From: Candidatus Yanofskybacteria bacterium
GTDB lineage: Bacteria > Patescibacteriota > Minisyncoccia > 2-02-FULL-40-12 > GWA2-44-9
Reading direction: 5' to 3'
DNA: 14,466 bases
NCBI GenBank assembly: GCA_016185505.1
Contig: JACPNL010000011.1
Coordinates: forward strand, 1-14,466
Below are positions 1,968 to 13,537 of the stretch, piece after piece (position 1 is the first letter of the stretch; every line of letters begins with the position of its first letter). A program made the translations under genes and the position numbers. The notes under the pieces are model-generated. The model ran no database searches and was not told where the DNA came from. It saw only the letters and a program-made list of their open reading frames with translations.

Positions 1968-3455
1968 ATGTTCAAAGAAGGATTGTTGGACAAAATTTTA
2001 AGAAATATCAAAAAACTGATACCGAAGTCGGTATTTGATTTTTTTGCGCCGGTTTATCATGCTACTTTAGCTTATGTCGGGGCTTTTTTGTACGGATTTC
2101 CATCACGTTCAATGAAGGTCATCGGTGTGACGGGAACTAAAGGCAAGTCAACGACGGTTTTTTTGATAAGTAAGATTTTGGAGGCGGCAGAATTAACGAC
2201 ATCGGAAGGCCAAAGGACTTCCGATGTCAATGTGGAGGAGCGCCCTCCACAAGGCGGGGTGGCGGCAATCGGGTCTCTCGGATATAAAATAAAAGATAAA
2301 GAATGGCCGAATACTCTGAAAATGACAATGCCCGGCCGGTTCAAATTGCAGAAATTCCTGGCCGAAGCCAAAAGAGCCGGATGCAAGTATGTGGTTCTTG
2401 AAGTGACTTCGGAGGGCATCAAACAAAAGCGCCATATGGGAGTAAAATTTGATTGTGCCGTGTTTACTAATCTGCACGAAGAGCATATTGAAAGTCACGG
2501 TTCTTTTAAAAATTACTATAAAGCCAAGCAGGAATTATTCAAAAAGACCTCAAATATTCACGTAATTAATGCCGATGATCCCCGCGTAGATTTGTTTGGG
2601 AACTTTCCGGCAAAGCATAAGATATTTTATGGATTGGAAAAAGGGGATTTGGTTGCCGGCAAAATTCAGTCCACGGAAAAAGGAACATCATTTGAACTTT
2701 ATGGCACGCGCTTTGACACTCATTTGGCCGGAGAGTTTAATGTTATGAATTGTCTGGCGGCGCTGGCGGTGGGGGCGATGTATAAGATTGATTTGCCCGC
2801 GATGAAACCGGTTTTGGAGTCAATTAAATTTATTCCGGGAAGGATGGAGTTCATACAGCGGGAGCCGTTTGGAGTGGTGGTAGATTATGCGCACACGCCA
2901 GATTCTTTGCGAAGCGTTTATCAAACGCTTCGCAAGAATCTGGCGCAACCAACAACCAACCCCGCACCAAGCTTATCCGCTGACCGCCATTCAGAAAGGG
3001 GGCGGGCTTGGAGCGGGGCAGGCAACCGACAACCAACAACAGGAAAATTGATTTGTGTTCTTGGTGCGGCGGGCGGGGGTAGAGATAAATGGAAAAGGCC
3101 CGAATTCGGAAGAATCGCGTCGGAATACTGCGATGAGATTATTTTGACGAATGAAGACCCCTATGATGAAAATCCCCAAAGCATCATCAAAGATATTGAA
3201 AGGGGATTTTCATCGAAATTTTCAATTTTCAATTTTCAATTTTCAAATAAATCCCAATTACCAAATCACAAAATAATTCTTGACCGTCGTGAGGCAATTC
3301 AAACTGCCTTGACAGATGCCGGGGAAGGTGATACCGTTATTATCACAGGGAAGGGTTCGGAGACGTCAATGGCCGTCGCGGGGGGCAGGAAGCTCCCTTG
3401 GTCGGACAAGGATGTCGTCCGTGAAGCTCTTCGACAACAATCCTCCTGCGCATAA
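1968..3455 (+). CDS. Mur ligase family protein, MurE-like (UDP-N-acetylmuramoyl-tripeptide synthetase-like) lacking the canonical N-terminal domain; contains low-complexity in-frame insertions
   Basis: P-loop GVTGTKGKSTT, central domain VVLEVTSEGIKQKRH ... FTNLHEEHIESHG, MurE-type DYAHTPDSL motif, GAAGGGRDKWKRPEFG, C-terminal ITGKGSE. Only about 50 aa precede the P-loop, against about 110 in MurE. Confidence 0.8.
   Translation: MFKEGLLDKILRNIKKLIPKSVFDFFAPVYHATLAYVGAFLYGFPSRSMKVIGVTGTKGKSTTVFLISKILEAAELTTSEGQRTSDVNVEERPPQGGVAAIGSLGYKIKDKEWPNTLKMTMPGRFKLQKFLAEAKRAGCKYVVLEVTSEGIKQKRHMGVKFDCAVFTNLHEEHIESHGSFKNYYKAKQELFKKTSNIHVINADDPRVDLFGNFPAKHKIFYGLEKGDLVAGKIQSTEKGTSFELYGTRFDTHLAGEFNVMNCLAALAVGAMYKIDLPAMKPVLESIKFIPGRMEFIQREPFGVVVDYAHTPDSLRSVYQTLRKNLAQPTTNPAPSLSADRHSERGRAWSGAGNRQPTTGKLICVLGAAGGGRDKWKRPEFGRIASEYCDEIILTNEDPYDENPQSIIKDIERGFSSKFSIFNFQFSNKSQLPNHKIILDRREAIQTALTDAGEGDTVIITGKGSETSMAVAGGRKLPWSDKDVVREALRQQSSCA
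3217..3244 (+). repeat. 4 x AATTTTC heptamer tandem repeat inside Mur ligase CDS
   Basis: Direct reading: aattttc aattttc aattttc aattttc (encodes FSIFNFQFS). Confidence 0.9.
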
Positions 3456-5417: not shown

Positions 5418-6247
5418 TTCGATTAGGGCCCTTACTATTTATCAAGGAAGTAGTTCTTTTTGGCCTTACGCTGGCTCTTGGTCTCTATACCGCTTATTAT
5501 TACTCTTTTTACTTTACCGATCTGGTTCAGAATGGAATGGTGAATTTTACGCCGGCTGATCTGATTATTTTGGCTATTTTGTTCGTCGCTATTTTCTTTG
5601 TGGCGCGGCACAAGAGGGTTGCCCGCTTTTCCTTCAGGTTCTTTCTTATATTGATCGTCTTTTCCGGAACTCAAGTTGTGTTGGGCACTATTCTGCCTTC
5701 GCCTTGGGACTTGTTGTTTGCGGTTATCTTTACTTTAATATTCTCTATCGGTATTAATGTGTTGGTTCACAATCTAGGTATTATTCTTGGAATTGCCGGT
5801 ATTGCGGCTGTATTCGGTCTCTCTATTTCAATTGAGTTCGGGCTTGTCCTGTTGGTTGTTCTTTCTTTATATGACATAGTGGCCGTTTATGTGACAAAGC
5901 ACATGGTGACTATGGCCAGAAGTATGGTCGAAGGCGGTGCGGTGTTTGGATTTTTAATTCCGTTTGAGTTCAAAGGATTTTTTTATGGAAGAGATGAGGC
6001 AAAGGCCGGAATAGGGGAGAATTTCATGATACTTGGTTCGGGAGATATCGGATTGCCGCTTATTTTTGCGGTTTCTCTGGTTAGGGTTTCTCTGATATCC
6101 GCGATAATTACGGCCACATTCTCTTTGCTGGGATTATTTATTACTCACCTTCTTTTTATAAACCAAGGACAGCGAAGGGCAATGGCGGCTTTGCCACCGA
6201 TCGCGACACTTACAATAATTGGTTACCTTGTAACCCAATTATTGTAA
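5414..6247 (+). CDS. Polytopic membrane protein, presenilin / signal-peptide-peptidase-like (A22 family-like) intramembrane aspartyl protease candidate
   Basis: About 8 TM segments. Candidate catalytic motifs sit in TM helices: LSLYDIVAVY (YD), ILGSGDIGLPLIF (GxGD) and AALPPIA (PAL-like). Confidence 0.45.
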   Translation: MIRLGPLLFIKEVVLFGLTLALGLYTAYYYSFYFTDLVQNGMVNFTPADLIILAILFVAIFFVARHKRVARFSFRFFLILIVFSGTQVVLGTILPSPWDLLFAVIFTLIFSIGINVLVHNLGIILGIAGIAAVFGLSISIEFGLVLLVVLSLYDIVAVYVTKHMVTMARSMVEGGAVFGFLIPFEFKGFFYGRDEAKAGIGENFMILGSGDIGLPLIFAVSLVRVSLISAIITATFSLLGLFITHLLFINQGQRRAMAALPPIATLTIIGYLVTQLL

Positions 6248-6388
6248 ATTGACCTAATTATACTAATTAACCTAATTATTCTAAATAATGCCCAATACCT
6301 AATCACCAAATGCCTAAAACAGCTTGGTCATTCGGTCATTAGAATTTATTTAGGTCAATTAGATTAATTAGAACAATTAGAATAATTT
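6248..6388. repeat. About 140-bp AT-rich palindromic intergenic element (copy A) built from 9-bp TAATTNNNC units in inverted arms; MITE-like
   Basis: Left arm ttgacc taattatac taattaacc taattattc taaataat. Right arm atttattta ggtcaatta gattaatta gaacaatta gaataatt. Strongly similar to 13350-13495. It directly abuts the ATG at 6389. Confidence 0.7.
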
Positions 6389-7804
6389 ATGAAACTTACT
6401 TTCTATGGTGGTGCTCGCCAAGTGACCGGAGCCAACTACTTGTTGGAGTTGGGCCCCGACGCAAGGTCGGGGTCAACAACCAAGTTGTTGGTTGATTGCG
6501 GGATGTTTCAGGGTTCAAGGTATGCGGAAGACCTGAACTATGAAAAATTTCCATATGATCCGGCGGAGATTAATTTTATTTTTATCACTCATAGTCATAC
6601 CGACCACGCTGGACGCTTGCCCAAGTTGTATAAAGAAGGATTCAGGGGCAAGGTCGTTGCGACAAACGCGACCCTTGATCTTATCAGAAAAGCTCTGCCG
6701 GACAACTTAAGATTGATAGAACAAGAAGCAAAAGATACTGGACGAGAACCACTGTTCTCTCTTGAGAACTTGGAAGGTGTTCTTAATTTGGTTCAGGGAG
6801 TTGATTATGAGGAAAATATTGAATTAGGTGGTGGTCTTGAAGTTAAATTACATGATGCCGGACACATATTGGGTTCTTCCATCGTGGAAATACGATGGAA
6901 GAACAAATCCGAAATCCGAAATCCGAAATCCGAAAATAATTCGAAACATCTTTACTTTACCGGTGATCTGGGGAATCCCCCGACACCCTTATTGAAATCG
7001 CCTTATTACCCCAATGATGCTGATTATGTCGTTATAGAGTCCGCCTACGGTTCAAGAACTCACGAGGATAAGGCCGAAAGAAAGAATATTTTACAGAAGA
7101 TCATAATTGAAACCATCCAAAGAGGTGGTGTGCTGACGATACCTTCGTTCGCGATGGAAAGAACGCAGGAACTTCTCTATGAACTCAATGGTCTGTTCAA
7201 CGACAATAAAATTCCCAAAGTACCCGTTTTTGTCGATTCTCCTCTGGCTACCAATTTGACCGAGGTGTACAGAAAGCATTCGGATTATTTCAATAAAGAA
7301 ACTATGTATATAATTAATTCCGGTGACGATATATTTAATTTTCCCGGGCTAAAATTCACTCGTACCACCGAAGAATCAAAACAGATAAACGATGTTACTC
7401 CGCCGAAGATAATAATTGCCGGCTCGGGAATGTCTACCGGCGGCCGGATATTGCATCACGAAAGGCGTTATCTGCAGGATCCGAATTCCACTATTCTGTT
7501 CATCGGTTATCAAGTAAAAGGTTCTTTGGGCAGGAGAATTTTGGATGAGGAAAAAGAGGTCAAAATATTCGGCGAAAAAGTTACCGTGAACTGCAAAGTG
7601 GAGGCGATAGGAGGATACTCCGCTCACGCCGACAGCGAAGGGCTTTTGGAATGGGTCAAAACCGCGAACAGCGAAGGTAAATTAAAAAAGGTATTTGTGG
7701 TGCAAGGCGAAGAGGATTCCTCATTGGCTCTCGCAAGAAAAATAGAAAGAGCGCTGGAAATTGATGCGGTGGTGCCGAAGCAAGGGGAAGGGTTCGAGTT
7801 GTAG
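6389..7804 (+). CDS. MBL-fold metallo-hydrolase, beta-CASP RNA-metabolising family (RNase J / CPSF-like ribonuclease)
   Basis: HSHTDHAG (HxHxDH), LVDCGMFQG, a beta-CASP region and C-terminal GGYSAHAD. 471 aa. Confidence 0.8.
   Translation: MKLTFYGGARQVTGANYLLELGPDARSGSTTKLLVDCGMFQGSRYAEDLNYEKFPYDPAEINFIFITHSHTDHAGRLPKLYKEGFRGKVVATNATLDLIRKALPDNLRLIEQEAKDTGREPLFSLENLEGVLNLVQGVDYEENIELGGGLEVKLHDAGHILGSSIVEIRWKNKSEIRNPKSENNSKHLYFTGDLGNPPTPLLKSPYYPNDADYVVIESAYGSRTHEDKAERKNILQKIIIETIQRGGVLTIPSFAMERTQELLYELNGLFNDNKIPKVPVFVDSPLATNLTEVYRKHSDYFNKETMYIINSGDDIFNFPGLKFTRTTEESKQINDVTPPKIIIAGSGMSTGGRILHHERRYLQDPNSTILFIGYQVKGSLGRRILDEEKEVKIFGEKVTVNCKVEAIGGYSAHADSEGLLEWVKTANSEGKLKKVFVVQGEEDSSLALARKIERALEIDAVVPKQGEGFEL
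6905..6932 (+). repeat. 4 x AAATCCG heptamer tandem repeat inside MBL-fold ribonuclease CDS
   Basis: aaatccg x4 (encodes SEIRNPKSE). Confidence 0.9.
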
Positions 7805-8757: not shown

Positions 8758-8799
8758 TCTTGTCTCAATTTTCCTCGTACGAGGAAAATTGAGACAAGA
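8758..8799. promoter_or_regulatory. 42-bp perfect palindrome in divergent intergenic region (candidate operator / cruciform)
   Basis: TCTTGTCTCAATTTTCCTCGTA | CGAGGAAAATTGAGACAAGA is perfectly self-complementary. It lies between the minus-strand gene start (8668) and the plus-strand gene start (8909). Confidence 0.6.
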
Positions 8800-9631: not shown

Positions 9632-9694
9632 TTGGTCAAGCCAGCTGAGCTGGCTCAACCCCACTAAATTTTGAGAAAAGGCATACTCTTGCAG

Positions 9695-10109
9695 TAGAGC
9701 GAAACTGCCAAATAATTTTTTAGCCTTCCGCTCCAGGAGAGCAGGATTCAAACTCCCATCGTCTTGAGAGACCCAAAAATGAGATGATTTCTTTGGTGTG
9801 ACGACGAAGATGTAGTTTAACACTACTTCGAGGAGGCACAACAAAGAAAGCGTCCATTTTTGGGCTCCCCCTTGGGGCGGGGCGGACTTACTTATCTGCT
9901 TCGTTGTCCAGATTCCTTCGGAATCGAGGATCCTCGATTGCTTCGCAATCGGGACTCGTCGCTTACGTACCGTTAAGGTACGCATCACTCCTCGCGCCTC
10001 GCATATAAGCAAGTCCGCTCCCGCTCAATTGATGCGAGTTTGAATCCTGCTCTCCTACGTCAACGCTAAAAAATTATCTGACCAGTTTCACTCTCTGGAT
10101 GCTTTGATT
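9695..10109. repeat. Palindromic element C2: same outer arms as C1, carrying a different, nested cargo
   Basis: TAGAGCGAAACTGCCAAATAATTTTTTAGCCTTCCGCTCC (9695-9734) matches the C1 left arm. ACGCTAAAAAATTATCTGACCAGTTTCACTC TCTGGATGCTTTGATT (10062-10109) matches the C1 right arm and tail. Confidence 0.7.
9735..10056. mobile_element. Nested 322-bp element with perfect 21-bp terminal inverted repeats (AGGAGAGCAGGATTCAAACTC ... GAGTTTGAATCCTGCTCTCCT), highly structured interior; MITE-like or structured ncRNA
   Basis: Perfect TIR 9735-9755 / 10036-10056. The interior holds several perfect hairpins: ATTCC-TTCG-GGAAT, CGATTGC-TTCG-GCAATCG, GTACC-GTTAA-GGTAC and the CGAGGATCCTCG palindrome. No ORF. 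Confidence 0.55.
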
Positions 10110-10324
10110 CAATCGATGATGTTGGAAAGAAACAAACTATTCATTCTCAAAATTTAGAGGGGTCTCGCTCCTCAACGCTAATTTTTCCGTGTTTTCCGAT
10201 TTTTCAGCGCTTCTGTGGTTAAAATTACCCAACGGCCTCGCTCCTCGGACGTTTTTATTTAATCGACGCAACAAGGGGTCTCGCTCCTTTGTGTTGTTGT
10301 GCTTGGTATTTTTGATGGGGCAGG

Positions 10325-10354
10325 TTGACAAAGCATAGCCCAATATGCTACAAT
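10325..10354 (+). promoter_or_regulatory. Near-consensus sigma70 promoter for nfeD-flotillin operon (TTGACA - 18 bp - TGCTACAAT) with palindrome AGCATA-N6-TATGCT in spacer
   Basis: TTGACA at 10325-10330. TACAAT at 10349-10354, preceded by an extended -10 TG. Inverted repeat AGCATAGCCCAATATGCT in the spacer. Confidence 0.55.
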
Positions 10355-10440
10355 ATTTTGGAAATCTCGAGTTGCCAGAAGGGCTCTCGAGATGGCAGTT
10401 CGTTCACAACTGTGGAGAGCCACGGAGAGAGGAAGGGGAT

Positions 10441-10968
10441 ATGCCACTGTTTATCGTCGCCGGGCTCATGGGGTTCCTGTTCTTCGTTGGGGCACTGATT
10501 TTCGGTGACCACGACGTCGGGCACGACCATGACTTTGATGGCGACCATGACCATGGAGGGTCGAGCGTGTTTTCGGTCTTCAATGTGTCATGGTTTCTCA
10601 TCGGGTTCGGCGGAATGGGGGCGGTTATCAGGGCCAATGACGTGGGGATGCCCGGAAGCACGATGTCCGGTCTCGCGACCGGTATTGCTTGCTGGGGCCT
10701 CGCTTTCTGCGTCATGCACCTGCTTGCAAAACAGCAGGGTGATTCAACCGTGACAGTCGCACGCATCATGAATGCGACTGGTACGGTCGTGATGTCTATT
10801 CCCGCAAACGGGGTGGGCAAGGTCCAGTGCAGTGTGGCCGGAAGCTTGCAAGAGTTTCTGGCTCGCTCGACGACACCGGTTTCGTTGTCGGAAGGTTCTC
10901 AAGTGAGAATCGTCGGCGATGCCGGTGGTGTGTACTTGGTGGAAGCTCAAACACAAGGAGGCAGGTGA
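10441..10968 (+). CDS. NfeD-like membrane protein (short NfeD / YuaF-like, partner of SPFH-flotillin)
   Basis: Start at the ATG at 10441 behind GAGGAAGGGG. The ATG at 10345 lies inside the -10 box. Two TM helices, a His/Asp-rich loop (DHDVGHDHDFDGDHDHGG) and a C-terminal beta domain. The stop overlaps the SD of the downstream flotillin gene. Confidence 0.65.
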   Translation: MPLFIVAGLMGFLFFVGALIFGDHDVGHDHDFDGDHDHGGSSVFSVFNVSWFLIGFGGMGAVIRANDVGMPGSTMSGLATGIACWGLAFCVMHLLAKQQGDSTVTVARIMNATGTVVMSIPANGVGKVQCSVAGSLQEFLARSTTPVSLSEGSQVRIVGDAGGVYLVEAQTQGGR

Positions 10969-10969
10969 C

Positions 10970-11269
10970 ATGGAGTTTTGGAAACAGCTCTCGGCAAACC
11001 TCGGATGGGTTATCGGAACAGTCCTACTGTTCATAGCCATCCTTGGTTCTCTTCGTTACGCGGCAAGCCGGTACAAGAAAGTGCCGCCAAGCCGCGTCGG
11101 GATCATCTACGGCCGTAAGCAGATCTATGAGATCCCGCAACAGGATGGAACCGTAAAGCAGGAGAAGCTTGGATTCCGCCTGCTCACCGGCGGCGGCGCG
11201 CTTGTCCTCCCGTTCTTGGAAGACTATGCCGAGTTGGACCTAAGCGCTCGACGTGATGATCGACGCTAG
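10970..11269 (+). CDS. Flotillin (SPFH-domain, FloT/YuaG-like) N-terminal fragment - interrupted by +1 frameshift near 11243-11256
   Basis: Strong SD AAGGAGG (10954-10960). MEFWKQ...VLLFIAILG TM helix, then GRKQ...FRLLTGGGALVLPFLEDYAELDLS matching flotillin (RGGGTFVFPVFEEVEKLSLEVM). The frame then runs into RRDDRR-stop. Confidence 0.7.
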   Translation: MEFWKQLSANLGWVIGTVLLFIAILGSLRYAASRYKKVPPSRVGIIYGRKQIYEIPQQDGTVKQEKLGFRLLTGGGALVLPFLEDYAELDLSARRDDRR

Positions 11270-12701
11270 AGGCACAGCTACTGTCGTGATCGGAACCGAT
11301 ACGTCGAGTCTCATCACTGCCGCTCGCAACTTCGAAGGTAAGAAGGAACAGGATATCAACCAGATTGCCCGGGAAAACCTGGAAGGCCAACTGCGGTCGA
11401 TTCTCGGCACCTTGACGGTTGAAGACCTGATCGGTGAGCGCAAGAAGCTCAATGAGGCGGTCTTGGAAGGTGCGGAGAGTGAGCTTCTGAAGCTCGGTCT
11501 GCGCATTTCCATCCTGACCATTCAGGAGATCACTGACCAGGTTAAGTACATCGAATCGCTGGGCAAAAAGCGTACCGCCGAAGTTCAGCGGGATGCTACT
11601 ATCGGCGAAGCCGAGGCGCAAAGCAAAGCCAAGATCGCGGCAAGCAACGCCACGAAAGAAGCCGAGACTGTCGCCGCGCAGAACGAAGTCAAGATCGCCG
11701 AGGCCAAGAAGGAGCGTGACGTTCAAGTTGCGCAATTCAAGGCATTGACCGATCGCGAAAAGGCGATTGCCGAACAGGCAGGCGCCATCGCGGCGGCCGA
11801 AGCGGACAAGACAGTGCGTCAGAGGAAGGTTGAGGCCGAAGCGGCCGAGACCACTGCGCGTATCCAACTCGCCGATCAGGAGACTGCTCGTGTCGAGAAG
11901 GAACTGCAGTTCCAGGTCATCAAACCGGCCGAAGCGCAGAAGCAGGCCGCGGTTATCAGGGCCGAGGGAAACAAGCAGACAGGTATCCTCGACGCCGAAA
12001 CCAAGAAGAGGCAACAGGTCATTCAAGCTGAAGCGGCTTTCGAAGCAGCTGCCAAGCAGGCCGACGCGACTCGAACCAAGGCTGAGGCTGATGGTGATGC
12101 TGCGGCAGCAATCGGCAAGGGCGACGCCGAAGCCGTACGTCTAAAGCTCACAGCTGAAGCCGATGGCGAGAAGGCAAAGCGTCTTGCCGCCGCCACGGGT
12201 ACCGAAGCTGAACTGCGGGCGGCTGCATCCGGCAAGGAAGCAGAACTGCTTGCAGAGGCACGCGGTGCTGAAGCAAAGCTCCTCGCAGAGGCCAAGGGTA
12301 AGGAACAGCTGGCTCTCGCGCTTGCCAAACTGGATCAGACAGGCAAACTTCTACAGGTGCTCGACGCAGCCCCCAAGGTTGCAGAGGCCCTGGGCGAAGC
12401 TCTCGCCAAGGCGCTCGGGCCCGACGGCCTTGCCAACGTGTTCGGCCAGATGGCCGCTCCGCTCGGCAGTGTTGACTCGATCCGGATGTATGATTTCGGC
12501 GGGAATGGCCATAACGGTAATGGTGCCGGATCGTTGGCCAAGTATGCCAACATCACACCGGAGCTGTTCTTCAATTTCGTCTCGAAGGCGACGGCACTGG
12601 GTTTCGGGTCTTTGCTCGAGAAGGTCGGGCTGACCTCCGAGATTCTGGACGACATGACAACTTCGGTTTCAACAGGGGCCGATGCATCCGAATCGAAGTA
12701 G
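11253..12701 (+). CDS. Flotillin C-terminal portion (SPFH core, EA-rich flotillin coiled-coil repeats, C-terminal domain); continues the 10970 frame after +1 shift (frame open from 11244)
   Basis: LDVMIDARGTATVVIG...ITDQVKYIESLGKKRTAEVQRDATIGEAEAQSKAKIA aligns with B. subtilis FloT. Long AEA/EAKA repeats follow. Confidence 0.8.
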   Translation: MMIDARGTATVVIGTDTSSLITAARNFEGKKEQDINQIARENLEGQLRSILGTLTVEDLIGERKKLNEAVLEGAESELLKLGLRISILTIQEITDQVKYIESLGKKRTAEVQRDATIGEAEAQSKAKIAASNATKEAETVAAQNEVKIAEAKKERDVQVAQFKALTDREKAIAEQAGAIAAAEADKTVRQRKVEAEAAETTARIQLADQETARVEKELQFQVIKPAEAQKQAAVIRAEGNKQTGILDAETKKRQQVIQAEAAFEAAAKQADATRTKAEADGDAAAAIGKGDAEAVRLKLTAEADGEKAKRLAAATGTEAELRAAASGKEAELLAEARGAEAKLLAEAKGKEQLALALAKLDQTGKLLQVLDAAPKVAEALGEALAKALGPDGLANVFGQMAAPLGSVDSIRMYDFGGNGHNGNGAGSLAKYANITPELFFNFVSKATALGFGSLLEKVGLTSEILDDMTTSVSTGADASESK

Positions 12702-12714
12702 CTCGTTCATTCAT

Positions 12715-12748
12715 AGAGGTCGGGGTAACAACCCCGACCTCTATTCTT
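12715..12748 (+). terminator. Terminator-like 12-bp perfect hairpin after flotillin
   Basis: AGAGGTCGGGGT-AACA-ACCCCGACCTCT followed by ATTCTT (weak U-tract). Confidence 0.5.
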
Positions 12749-12764
12749 AGGAGAGGAGAAAACA

Positions 12765-13220
12765 GTGAAGTACCAACTCACAGAAGGTATTCCGGACGCT
12801 CTCGTGATTCACTGTGCCGATCCGCGTTTTCAGGAAGCCTTCAGAGCCTACCTGAAGAATGATCTCGGTATACGTATGCCGATGATCATAGCGTTGCCTG
12901 GCGTGACCAGCCACTTCGGGATGCAGATGATGTTTCCGAAGAACTGGTACACAGTAAGGTCACACCTCAAGACCATGACAGATCGTCACGATGTGGCACG
13001 AGTCGTCCTTATCAATCACGACGACTGCAAGGGCTACGCCAAGATTGCCGATAAGCTTGGTGGTCTGGTGAAAGTTCCAGAGTGGCAGCGCAAGCACCTC
13101 CATGGCCTGGCAGAGTTTATCAGAAAGGAATATCTGCCTCACGCCTCTTTTGAACTCTACCAAGCGCATATCGTTGAGAAAGGCAGTGTGCGTGAGGTCG
13201 AGTTCGAGAAAATCTTGTAG
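12765..13220 (+). CDS. Hypothetical protein with beta-carbonic-anhydrase-like CxDxR ... HxxC motif arrangement (HCADPRF ... NHDDCKGY)
   Basis: GTG start behind AGGAGAGGAG (12749-12758). 151 aa. The spacing of the Cys-Asp-Arg and His-x-x-Cys motifs resembles the zinc ligands of minimal beta-CAs. The function call is tentative. Confidence 0.5.
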   Translation: MKYQLTEGIPDALVIHCADPRFQEAFRAYLKNDLGIRMPMIIALPGVTSHFGMQMMFPKNWYTVRSHLKTMTDRHDVARVVLINHDDCKGYAKIADKLGGLVKVPEWQRKHLHGLAEFIRKEYLPHASFELYQAHIVEKGSVREVEFEKIL

Positions 13221-13263
13221 GTTCTACGCCGCCGGTCTGATACTTACAACGGCTAACGCCGAC

Positions 13264-13312
13264 GCCCCCTTCGGGGGCCAGAGGGGGACACGTGTCCCCC
13301 TTTTAATTTTTT
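13264..13312 (+). terminator. Tandem intrinsic terminators (CCCCC-UUCG-GGGGG hairpin, then GGGGGACAC/GTGTCCCCC perfect hairpin + TTTTAATTTTTT)
   Basis: 13264-13278 GCCCCCTTCGGGGGC. 13283-13300 is a perfect 18-bp palindrome followed by a T-run. Confidence 0.8.
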
Positions 13313-13349
13313 AAAAAGTGTGATAATATAAATACAAAATATAAACACC

Positions 13350-13495
13350 CCCAATTATTCTAATTATACTAATTATTCTAATTACTCTAAATAATGACTA
13401 ATCCCCAATCATTAAATGACCAAATCGATTTAGTCATTGAGTCGTTGGGATTTATTTAGGTCAATTAGGTTAATTAGAATAATTAGGTTAATTTA
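13350..13495. repeat. Copy B of the about 140-bp TAATTNNNC-unit palindromic element (see 6248-6388)
   Basis: ctaattatactaattattctaattactctaaataatg ... atttatttaggtcaattaggttaattagaataattaggttaatt. The central part contains the near-perfect palindrome AATGACCAAATCGATTTAGTCATT. Confidence 0.7.
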
Positions 13496-13537
13496 TTGCC
13501 CTGTTTGGTTCCTGTGCTTTGTGTTTTAGCTATGTAA

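Follow-up and report, generated by a model that had tools for sequence, protein, structure and literature searches.

An in-frame GC-rich hairpin in a beta-CASP ribonuclease gene of Candidatus Yanofskybacteria, probably a copy of a hairpin repeat family dispersed through CPR genomes

The DNA analyzed here, referred to as the window, is the whole 14,466-nt contig of a metagenome-assembled genome (MAG) of Candidatus Yanofskybacteria, a lineage of the Candidate Phyla Radiation (CPR/Patescibacteria). It carries a small GC-rich hairpin inside the gene of a beta-CASP / metallo-beta-lactamase (MBL) ribonuclease (RNase). The hairpin core, named H1 in the following (CCCCGAC-GCAAG-GTCGGGG; 6454–6472, plus strand), has a perfect 7-bp stem and a 5-nt loop, and its orientation is set by the GCAAG loop on the plus strand. 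We consider H1 to be, probably, a solo copy of a family of short, GC-rich, stop-free hairpin repeats (NNCCGAC-loop-GTCGGNN) dispersed through CPR genomes, tolerated and translated here in a permissive loop of the protein. The host gene (6389–7804, plus strand) encodes a product of 471 aa of the TTHA0252 type: Pfam reported Beta-Casp (1.4e-38), RMMBL (1.2e-16) and Lactamase_B, the MBL, beta-CASP and RMMBL domains and the HxHxDH motif are all present, and the nearest solved structure is PDB 2DKF, the Thermus thermophilus RNase TTHA0252 (E = 1.3e-83). The open reading frame (ORF) is intact despite the hairpin insert. An earlier note on this DNA had described a perfect 7-bp GC hairpin in-frame in the N-terminus of a beta-CASP RNase, and this is what we find at the above position.

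Codon alignment with the orthologous genes of two relatives (L001 and L003) revealed a single clean gap of seven codons, corresponding to an in-frame insertion of 21 nt at 6455–6475 on the plus strand (codons P23–S29, PDARSGS). The edges of the insertion are ambiguous by 1–2 nt, and 6454–6474 fits equally well, consisting of the 19-mer and a TC inside the Gly codon of the turn. H1 coincides exactly with this lineage-specific insertion, whose GC content of 71% compares with about 40% locally. Of the nine residues PDARSGSTT that had been proposed as extra, the first seven proved to be so, while the two threonines are native. As RNA, the H1 stem grows to 9 bp (GGCCCCGAC/GUCGGGGUC, one G-U), and the 60-nt segment 6436–6495 folds with −28.3 kcal/mol (z = −4.3; 0/200 shuffles equal); as DNA the same segment reaches −15.3 kcal/mol (z = −4.1), and no shuffle was as good. 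The earlier suggestion that the flanks extend the stem did not hold, since the 18-nt arms are 72% complementary, the minimum-energy fold gives separate small hairpins and the RNA gains two pairs only. A neighbouring perfect 7-bp hairpin (CAACAAC-CAA-GTTGTTG; 6474–6490, plus strand) is formed by the native codons T30–L34 and is not present in the orthologues, whose codons differ. Across the window, 20 perfect hairpins of at least 7 bp were counted versus 6.2 ± 2.5 in composition-matched shuffles; for GC-rich perfect hairpins (at least 7 bp) the numbers are 3 versus 0.28, and for hairpins of at least 11 bp 4 versus 0.04. The hairpin at 6454–6472 is therefore confirmed as real and as more than a chance occurrence.

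The turn in which the insertion lies, between strands beta2 and beta3, is normally compact, as had been assumed beforehand: 42 of the 49 aligned orthologues, including every orthologue at 76–85% identity, have no insertion and read YLLE-xG-xxK-ILVDCG at this place, and the alignment with TTHA0252 shows a 7-residue gap at the position of PDARSGS. In the AlphaFold model (mean predicted local distance difference test score, pLDDT, of 80.7), residues 24–29 form a turn between the strands 16–23 and 30–37, with a pLDDT of about 64 for the insert. The remaining 7/49 orthologues carry different insertions in the same turn, comprising 25 residues in P0057, P0079 and P0088, 14 in P0029, 10–14 in P0022 and P0028 and one extra residue in P0056. 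In all three orthologues whose DNA was read (L005, L006 and L007), these turn insertions form hairpins. The insert of L005, an element of 75 nt, has a 12-bp outer stem that encloses two hairpins, and the 123-nt stretch spanning the turn folds with −58.5 kcal/mol; that of L006 is a long GC hairpin and that of L007 a 7-bp inverted repeat. A relative of the 75-nt element was found in a different loop of the RNase in P0035 and P0036, and another copy elsewhere in L155. Furthermore, a Giovannonibacteria locus (L080), whose RNase is 49% identical, carries the same 19-mer together with a second hairpin (39 nt in total) in the same beta-turn and in another frame, which indicates an independent hit on the same permissive site. 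With a turn of just two or three codons, the coincidence of insertions at this site can be accounted for by structural tolerance alone.

H1 recurs in other genomes. We scanned one genome per species (596 Gb, 1.2e12 positions) for the exact H1 19-mer and found it in at least 120 genome stretches, versus about 4 expected (1.2e12 / 4^19, uniform composition), an expectation that is lower by orders of magnitude in genomes of 35–45% GC. The scan for such hairpins proposed in the earlier note thus returned a clear excess, mostly in CPR and both within and outside coding sequences. Among the matches listed, 67/120 loci carry CPR labels and span about 20 candidate phyla, including Saccharibacteria, Paceibacterota, Yanofsky-, Giovannoni-, Magasanik-, Kaiser-, Adler-, Wolfe-, Uhr-, Doudna-, Moran- and Nomurabacteria, Microgenomates and others. 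Outside the CPR, the GC-rich Planctomycetaceae MAG CAZNMS01 (L009, L013, L028 and others) accounts for at least 22 loci, with the 19-mer serving as core to a dispersed repeat that measures about 100 nt. Common loop variants in the H1 family are GTAAA, TTAAA and TGAAA; family variants are about 4-fold enriched in the 19-mer loci, and family hairpins occur about once per 10–17 kb. A phage as vector of the 19-mer was considered and rejected, as IMG/VR gave a single match.

The copies are found in different contexts. In genes confirmed by Pfam, the 19-mer lies in-frame in DnaG, RF1/2, PolX, LysRS (opposite strand), RluD, KsgA, ValRS and an orthologous beta-CASP RNase; by inspection, it is also present in SecA, in TsaD, in glutamate dehydrogenase and N-terminally in a sigma-70 factor. 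Coding copies use all three frames and both strands and are read, for example, as PRRKVG, PDARSG, PTQGRG or PTLRRG, which identifies the repeat unit as a DNA element and not a protein module. In RNA genes, the 19-mer forms the P3 hairpin of the RNase P RNA of L104 and lies within the 23S rRNA of L029. At other sites, terminator-like hairpins with A- and T-runs are built on the 19-mer (e.g. L018, L040, L063 and L069). The window copy itself does not resemble an intrinsic terminator: it lies 66 nt into the ORF and is followed by TCAACAACC without a T-run. Estimated from ORF context together with Pfam or inspection, about one fifth of the CPR copies fall in coding sequence, though the latter makes up about 90% of these genomes. 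The element is thus depleted in genes and much rarer per base inside than between them, being tolerated in coding sequence and not targeted there, as expected for insertions filtered by selection. We also considered that copies generally sit in the loops of pre-existing hairpins; this was rejected, as it holds only for 11/51 solo copies (terminator-like) and not for doublets.

These doublets represent the canonical form of the element. In the low-GC loci, 22/73 copies have another NNCCGAC-loop-GTCGGNN hairpin directly downstream and 0/73 have one upstream, which makes the doublet polar. Its modal length is 19 + 20 = 39 nt (13 codons), and it can also fold as one long hairpin resembling a REPIN (a doublet of repetitive extragenic palindromic, REP, sequences), as in L080.

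Taken together, the insertion probably arose as follows. One copy (the 19-mer and 2 nt, 21 nt in total) would have entered the codons of the beta2-beta3 turn in the lineage leading to this organism, as part of a family whose copies presumably spread by some copy-and-insert process. The insert would then be transcribed and translated as the seven extra residues PDARSGS and would be selectively near-neutral, with the stable mRNA or DNA hairpin as a by-product and not a selected signal. It probably persists because its length is a multiple of three, because it has no stop in any frame and because the turn that it extends is exposed to solvent and lies away from the HxHxDH metal site. Several observations weigh against this interpretation. 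No consistent target-site duplication or target motif was found at the window copy or the other copies, with no direct repeat flanking 6454–6474, and all-against-all clustering of 2735 ORFs from the 8-kb flanks of the 120 listed loci gave no recurrent transposase-like cluster and no REP-associated tyrosine transposase (RAYT). Exact copies number only 1–4 per CPR genome in our sample, unlike in classic REP/REPIN families or families of MITEs (miniature inverted-repeat transposable elements), and the window holds a single H1 copy besides a terminator-like hairpin at 12713–12744, within a GC-rich block at 9634–13537, in which the heptamers are swapped (GTCGGGG/CCCCGAC). The excess of the 19-mer (at least 120 stretches) was set against a calculated expectation, and translation of PDARSGS is read solely from the frame and the integrity of the ORF. 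Finally, the protein cluster of the window RNase has a single member.

A possible link to a mobile system was provided by all-against-all clustering of the ORFs flanking H1. All of the small GIY-YIG (PF01541) ORFs in low-GC H1 loci (5/5) are located within 450 nt of the 19-mer, for which the probability by chance is about 2e-5. In L034, L094 and L076, the doublet occupies the D-loop position of a tRNA 5' fragment, and this fragment is followed by the GIY-YIG ORF and then by an intact tRNA. Starting from GIY-YIG homologues, 3/4 loci (L180, L182 and L183) showed the same layout with variant doublets, and in L112, L127, L093 and L042 the cassette occurs without the ORF. In these small GIY-YIG cassettes at tRNA genes, the CCGAC doublet makes up the 5' module, where it may represent an end of the cassette, its target or a scar left by repair. 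The unit of tRNA fragment, doublet and GIY-YIG ORF looks like a mobile element tied to tRNA genes. Functional tRNAs with D-loop hairpin 'introns' were considered as well and rejected, because ARAGORN finds no tRNA after in-silico excision; the apparent D-loop copies are orphan 5' fragments located 50–300 nt upstream of intact tRNAs. A GIY-YIG cassette is also present at L057, and the intact tRNAs of the cassette loci are those for Phe, Arg, Val and His. In L094, a degenerate tRNA-like sequence (about 560–660 of the extract) lies 3' of the tRNA-Phe and has family hairpins in its D-loop and anticodon loop.

H1 is not the only insertion of its kind in the window. The FemAB gene contains a palindrome with 22-nt arms of 95% complementarity (497–540) around an 18-nt lineage-specific insertion at 511–528 (AHDREK; z = −5.4). 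The Mur ligase gene carries an in-frame lineage-specific insertion of 60 nt (2190–2249, plus strand), which is covered by two adjacent hairpins at 2198–2228 and 2231–2251 (minimum free energy −34.8, z = −4.7). The claim that H1 is the third instance of the same insertion style agrees with these two lineage-specific hairpin insertions. A dispersed hairpin element of about 62 nt (CCCCGCACCAAG...CTTGGAGCGGGG; 2960–3023, plus strand) additionally has a copy in the Mur ligase gene, which is in-frame and translated as PAPSLSADRHSERGRAWSGAG. Over 46 nt, this element matches the opposite strand of intergenic DNA in L001 and L003 with 96% identity. Its 19-mer core gave 51 exact matches in metagenome contigs, about 47 of which are copies of the element that lie either between genes or in-frame, the latter showing the peptide signature PAPSLSADRHSEKGRAWSGAG. 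The other gene-specific insertions in the window (FemAB and, twice, Mur ligase) are hence hairpins or dispersed hairpin elements, and the reading of H1 in the earlier note as one of several inserted hairpins is supported. As dispersed repeats, the Mur ligase insertion at 2190–2249 and the FemAB palindrome were rejected, with no convincing copies in about 1.5 Mb compared. The 62-nt element (CCCCGCACCAAG...CTTGGTGCGGGG) is also found in relatives in the intergenic DNA upstream of Lon (L001 12518–12563) and, in groundwater metagenomes (L129–L179), in-frame with the peptide PAPSLSADRHSEKGRAWSGAG in other genes, a GatB-like one for example.

In addition, the RNase gene has a perfect 13-bp hairpin at 6873–6904, whose left arm encodes the conserved codons GSSIV and whose right arm encodes the variable loop RWKN. 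At the same position of the RNase, L003 has a 17-bp perfect hairpin (10470–10507) with different bases in both arms (variable arm QLTSQ), and L001 a decayed version with 7 + 3 bp left (about 10470–10500). Between species, changes in the conserved arm are synonymous and are matched by changes in the arm of the variable loop (RWKN versus QLTSQ); this co-variation of the arms indicates that the structure is under selection or is restored by repeated intrastrand template switching. Perfect palindromes of at least 10 bp are generally frequent, with 4–8 per locus (about 7–21 kb) versus about 0.1 expected, and several of them are intragenic. Further examples include a perfect 13-bp palindrome at 2907–2935 (TTGCGAAGCGTTT-ATC-AAACGCTTCGCAA) within the conserved Mur ligase segment SLxxVYxTLK, in which both arms are unlike the orthologues and four residues are changed, and a perfect 42-nt palindrome with a GTAC centre at 8758–8799, intergenic and 5' of the LOG gene. 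Intergenic perfect palindromes in relatives have stems of 20–33 bp and total lengths of 44–74 nt. Rfam searches at the gathering threshold and at a permissive E-value, made with the hairpins of the window, the elements of 62 and 75 nt and 16 H1 loci, found no matching family and returned the expected tRNA, RNase P and large-subunit rRNA hits along with miRNA-like long-hairpin noise far below threshold.

The abundance of palindromes raises the question whether H1 was made locally by replication template switching (snap-back or quasi-palindrome correction), so that one arm would be an inverse copy of adjacent sequence and no mobile element would be involved. Many perfect palindromes in these genomes do look locally made: in the RNase hairpins at 6873–6904 and L003 10470–10507 the variable arm is the exact inverse of the conserved coding arm, and the same is true of L001 7125–7165 in the Mur ligase gene. 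The excess of perfect hairpins of at least 10 bp and the second 7-bp hairpin in the native codons beside H1 point in the same direction. Nevertheless, we regard this origin as very unlikely for H1, because both of its arms are new with respect to the orthologues, so that, unlike at 6873–6904, neither copies local sequence, and because at least 67 CPR loci, with contexts unrelated to one another, have the identical 19-mer including its loop, which independent local events cannot yield. An ordinary loop indel with a coincidental hairpin, or an assembly or chimera artefact, is scarcely credible. The turn is an indel hot spot and the allele is known from one contig only; against this stand the chance of about 1e-3 for a perfect 7-bp stem in a 21-nt insert, the match of the insert to a 19-mer that recurs in independent assemblies from many studies and the intact ORF.

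Two further explanations concern the RNA. A stable hairpin close to the 5' end of an RNase mRNA could be a selected cis-regulatory structure of that mRNA, acting as an autoregulatory cleavage or protection site or as a ribosome pause 66 nt after the start codon, and the use of the same hairpin in structured RNAs, in terminators and as 5' leader of GIY-YIG ORFs would fit such a role. However, the closest orthologues have no hairpin, the T-run after H1 is absent, and the same 19-mer occurs at arbitrary internal sites of numerous unrelated housekeeping genes, irrespective of frame and strand. The unrelated hairpins in the same turn of other lineages point to structural tolerance, and we find a regulatory function of H1 very doubtful. 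Alternatively, the hairpin might be removed or skipped at the RNA level, as a mini-intron or by translational bypass (compare the mitochondrial 'byp' elements), yielding a protein without PDARSGS. GC-rich hairpins in an AT-rich genome do recall mitochondrial bypass and GC-cluster elements, and CPR genomes are intron-rich (PMC13011429, PMC11270868). Yet every Pfam-confirmed coding copy lies within one uninterrupted ORF, meaning that the inserted length keeps the frame and contains no stop, and the canonical doublet measures 39 nt. In-silico excision of copies whose length is not a multiple of three restored long ORFs in 3/66 cases, apparently chance fusions of neighbouring genes, and the apparent tRNA copies are orphan fragments and not interrupted functional tRNAs. 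All of this renders removal at the RNA level extremely improbable.

We therefore favour the reading of H1 as a translated copy of a dispersed hairpin repeat. A considerably broader scenario is that the 39-nt (13-codon) CCGAC double hairpin is the non-autonomous miniature of an undescribed CPR mobile system, namely the GIY-YIG cassettes located within tRNA 5' ends that have been duplicated. The spread of this double hairpin, perhaps assisted by an unusually active template switching that makes and maintains palindromes, might then be a major source of the lineage-specific protein-loop insertions and the rRNA and RNase P RNA expansions of CPR bacteria. We offer this scenario tentatively and consider it rather unlikely in its entirety.

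As to the remainder of the window, the gene order FemAB, GNAT, TrpR-like, Mur ligase, two hypothetical genes, signal-peptide peptidase, beta-CASP RNase and LOG is common to the window, L001 and L003. Between LOG and Lon, the window has an extra GC-rich (55–63%) block of 3.9 kb (9634–13537) compared with L001 and L003, which encodes an SPFH/Band7 ORF and a putative carbonic-anhydrase-like ORF and is probably an island gained by horizontal transfer (or else a mis-join). An AT-rich direct repeat of 144 nt with 81% identity is located directly 5' of the RNase gene (6247–6390) and directly 5' of Lon (13353–13496). Each copy is a long hairpin itself, and the repeat may be either MITE-like or a shared 5' leader. 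Another AT-rich repeat, AAATCC(G/C)AAATCC..., is found at 6912–6942, 3249–3279 and 6286–6316; the RNase gene reads it in-frame as KSEIRNPKSENN and the Mur ligase gene, in opposite sense, as FSIFNFQFSN, and this motif family recurs in loop insertions of many orthologues.

CPR bacteria have tiny genomes, yet their conserved proteins and rRNAs contain many lineage-specific insertions of unexplained origin. If our interpretation is true, families of short hairpin repeats without stops, inserted into permissive loops and subsequently translated, would be a concrete source for some of these insertions, and they would provide a simple sequence signature to flag insertions in the annotation and modelling of CPR proteins. 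The GIY-YIG/tRNA link and the arm-by-arm co-variation, in turn, make the origin, movement and persistence of palindromes testable in organisms with reduced repair repertoires.

Among known systems, the behaviour of H1 appears closest to that of the Rickettsia palindromic elements (RPEs), and its form seems closest to REP/REPIN sequences and to the GC clusters or double hairpins of mitochondria. RPEs are about 100–150 bp long, are confined to Rickettsia and are also found in RNA genes and intergenic DNA. As Ogata and colleagues reportedly described in 2000, they are selfish palindromes that lie in-frame in housekeeping ORFs at surface sites and are translated without loss of function. H1 resembles them in its reduced-genome host, its in-frame location at tolerated surface sites and its copies in RNA genes; unlike RPEs, it is a GC-rich mini-hairpin of 21 nt (39 nt as doublet) in CPR hosts across phyla, which sets it apart by the descriptions of RPEs. 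REP and REPIN sequences are GC-rich imperfect palindromes of 20–40 nt, which are extragenic, occur in tens to hundreds of copies per genome and accompany a cognate RAYT (Y1 HUH) gene. With these, H1 shares the short GC-rich stem-loop (7 bp, 9 bp as RNA; z = −4.3), the doublet that folds as a long hairpin and the frequent terminator-like sites, and the Planctomycetaceae MAG has a REP-like repeat of at least 22 copies that is built around the same 19-mer. In contrast to REP/REPIN, the window copy lies inside a coding sequence, many other copies are intragenic, exact copies amount to 1–4 per CPR genome and the 8-kb flanks of the 120 listed loci hold no RAYT. Quasi-palindrome template-switch mutagenesis is known in E. 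coli and accounts for local palindromes such as 6873–6904 and 497–540, but not for an identical 19-mer at unrelated sites and in unrelated genomes. H1 consequently misses the length and taxon that define RPEs, the extragenic site and copy number of REP sequences and, having no flanking duplication, the target-site duplication of MITEs.

In the AT-rich compact genomes of mitochondria (yeast, Allomyces), GC clusters and double-hairpin elements are inserted in genes for proteins and rRNA (PMC4478555). H1 is similar in that single or double GC-rich hairpins occur in protein and rRNA genes of AT-rich compact genomes, whereas the mitochondrial elements are organellar, have other sequences and show no tie to tRNA-associated GIY-YIG cassettes. 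Literature searches, both topical and with the sequence or peptide itself, gave no description of the hairpin family, and the nearest CPR studies concern introns and rRNA insertions (PMC13011429, PMC11270868). Tsurumaki et al. (2024) described uncharacterised ORF-less insertions of less than 200 bp at the tops or bases of CPR rRNA stem-loops, as well as GIY-YIG genes in non-intron insertions of CPR rRNA genes (PMC11270868). One H1 copy in 23S rRNA is in line with these insertions; unlike the present finding, that study covers rRNA only and includes neither a hairpin family nor protein-coding insertions. Altogether, H1 behaves like a small selfish repeat that remodels protein loops, a seemingly undescribed case of in-frame palindromic selfish DNA and, should this hold true, a CPR-wide counterpart of the elements in Rickettsia.

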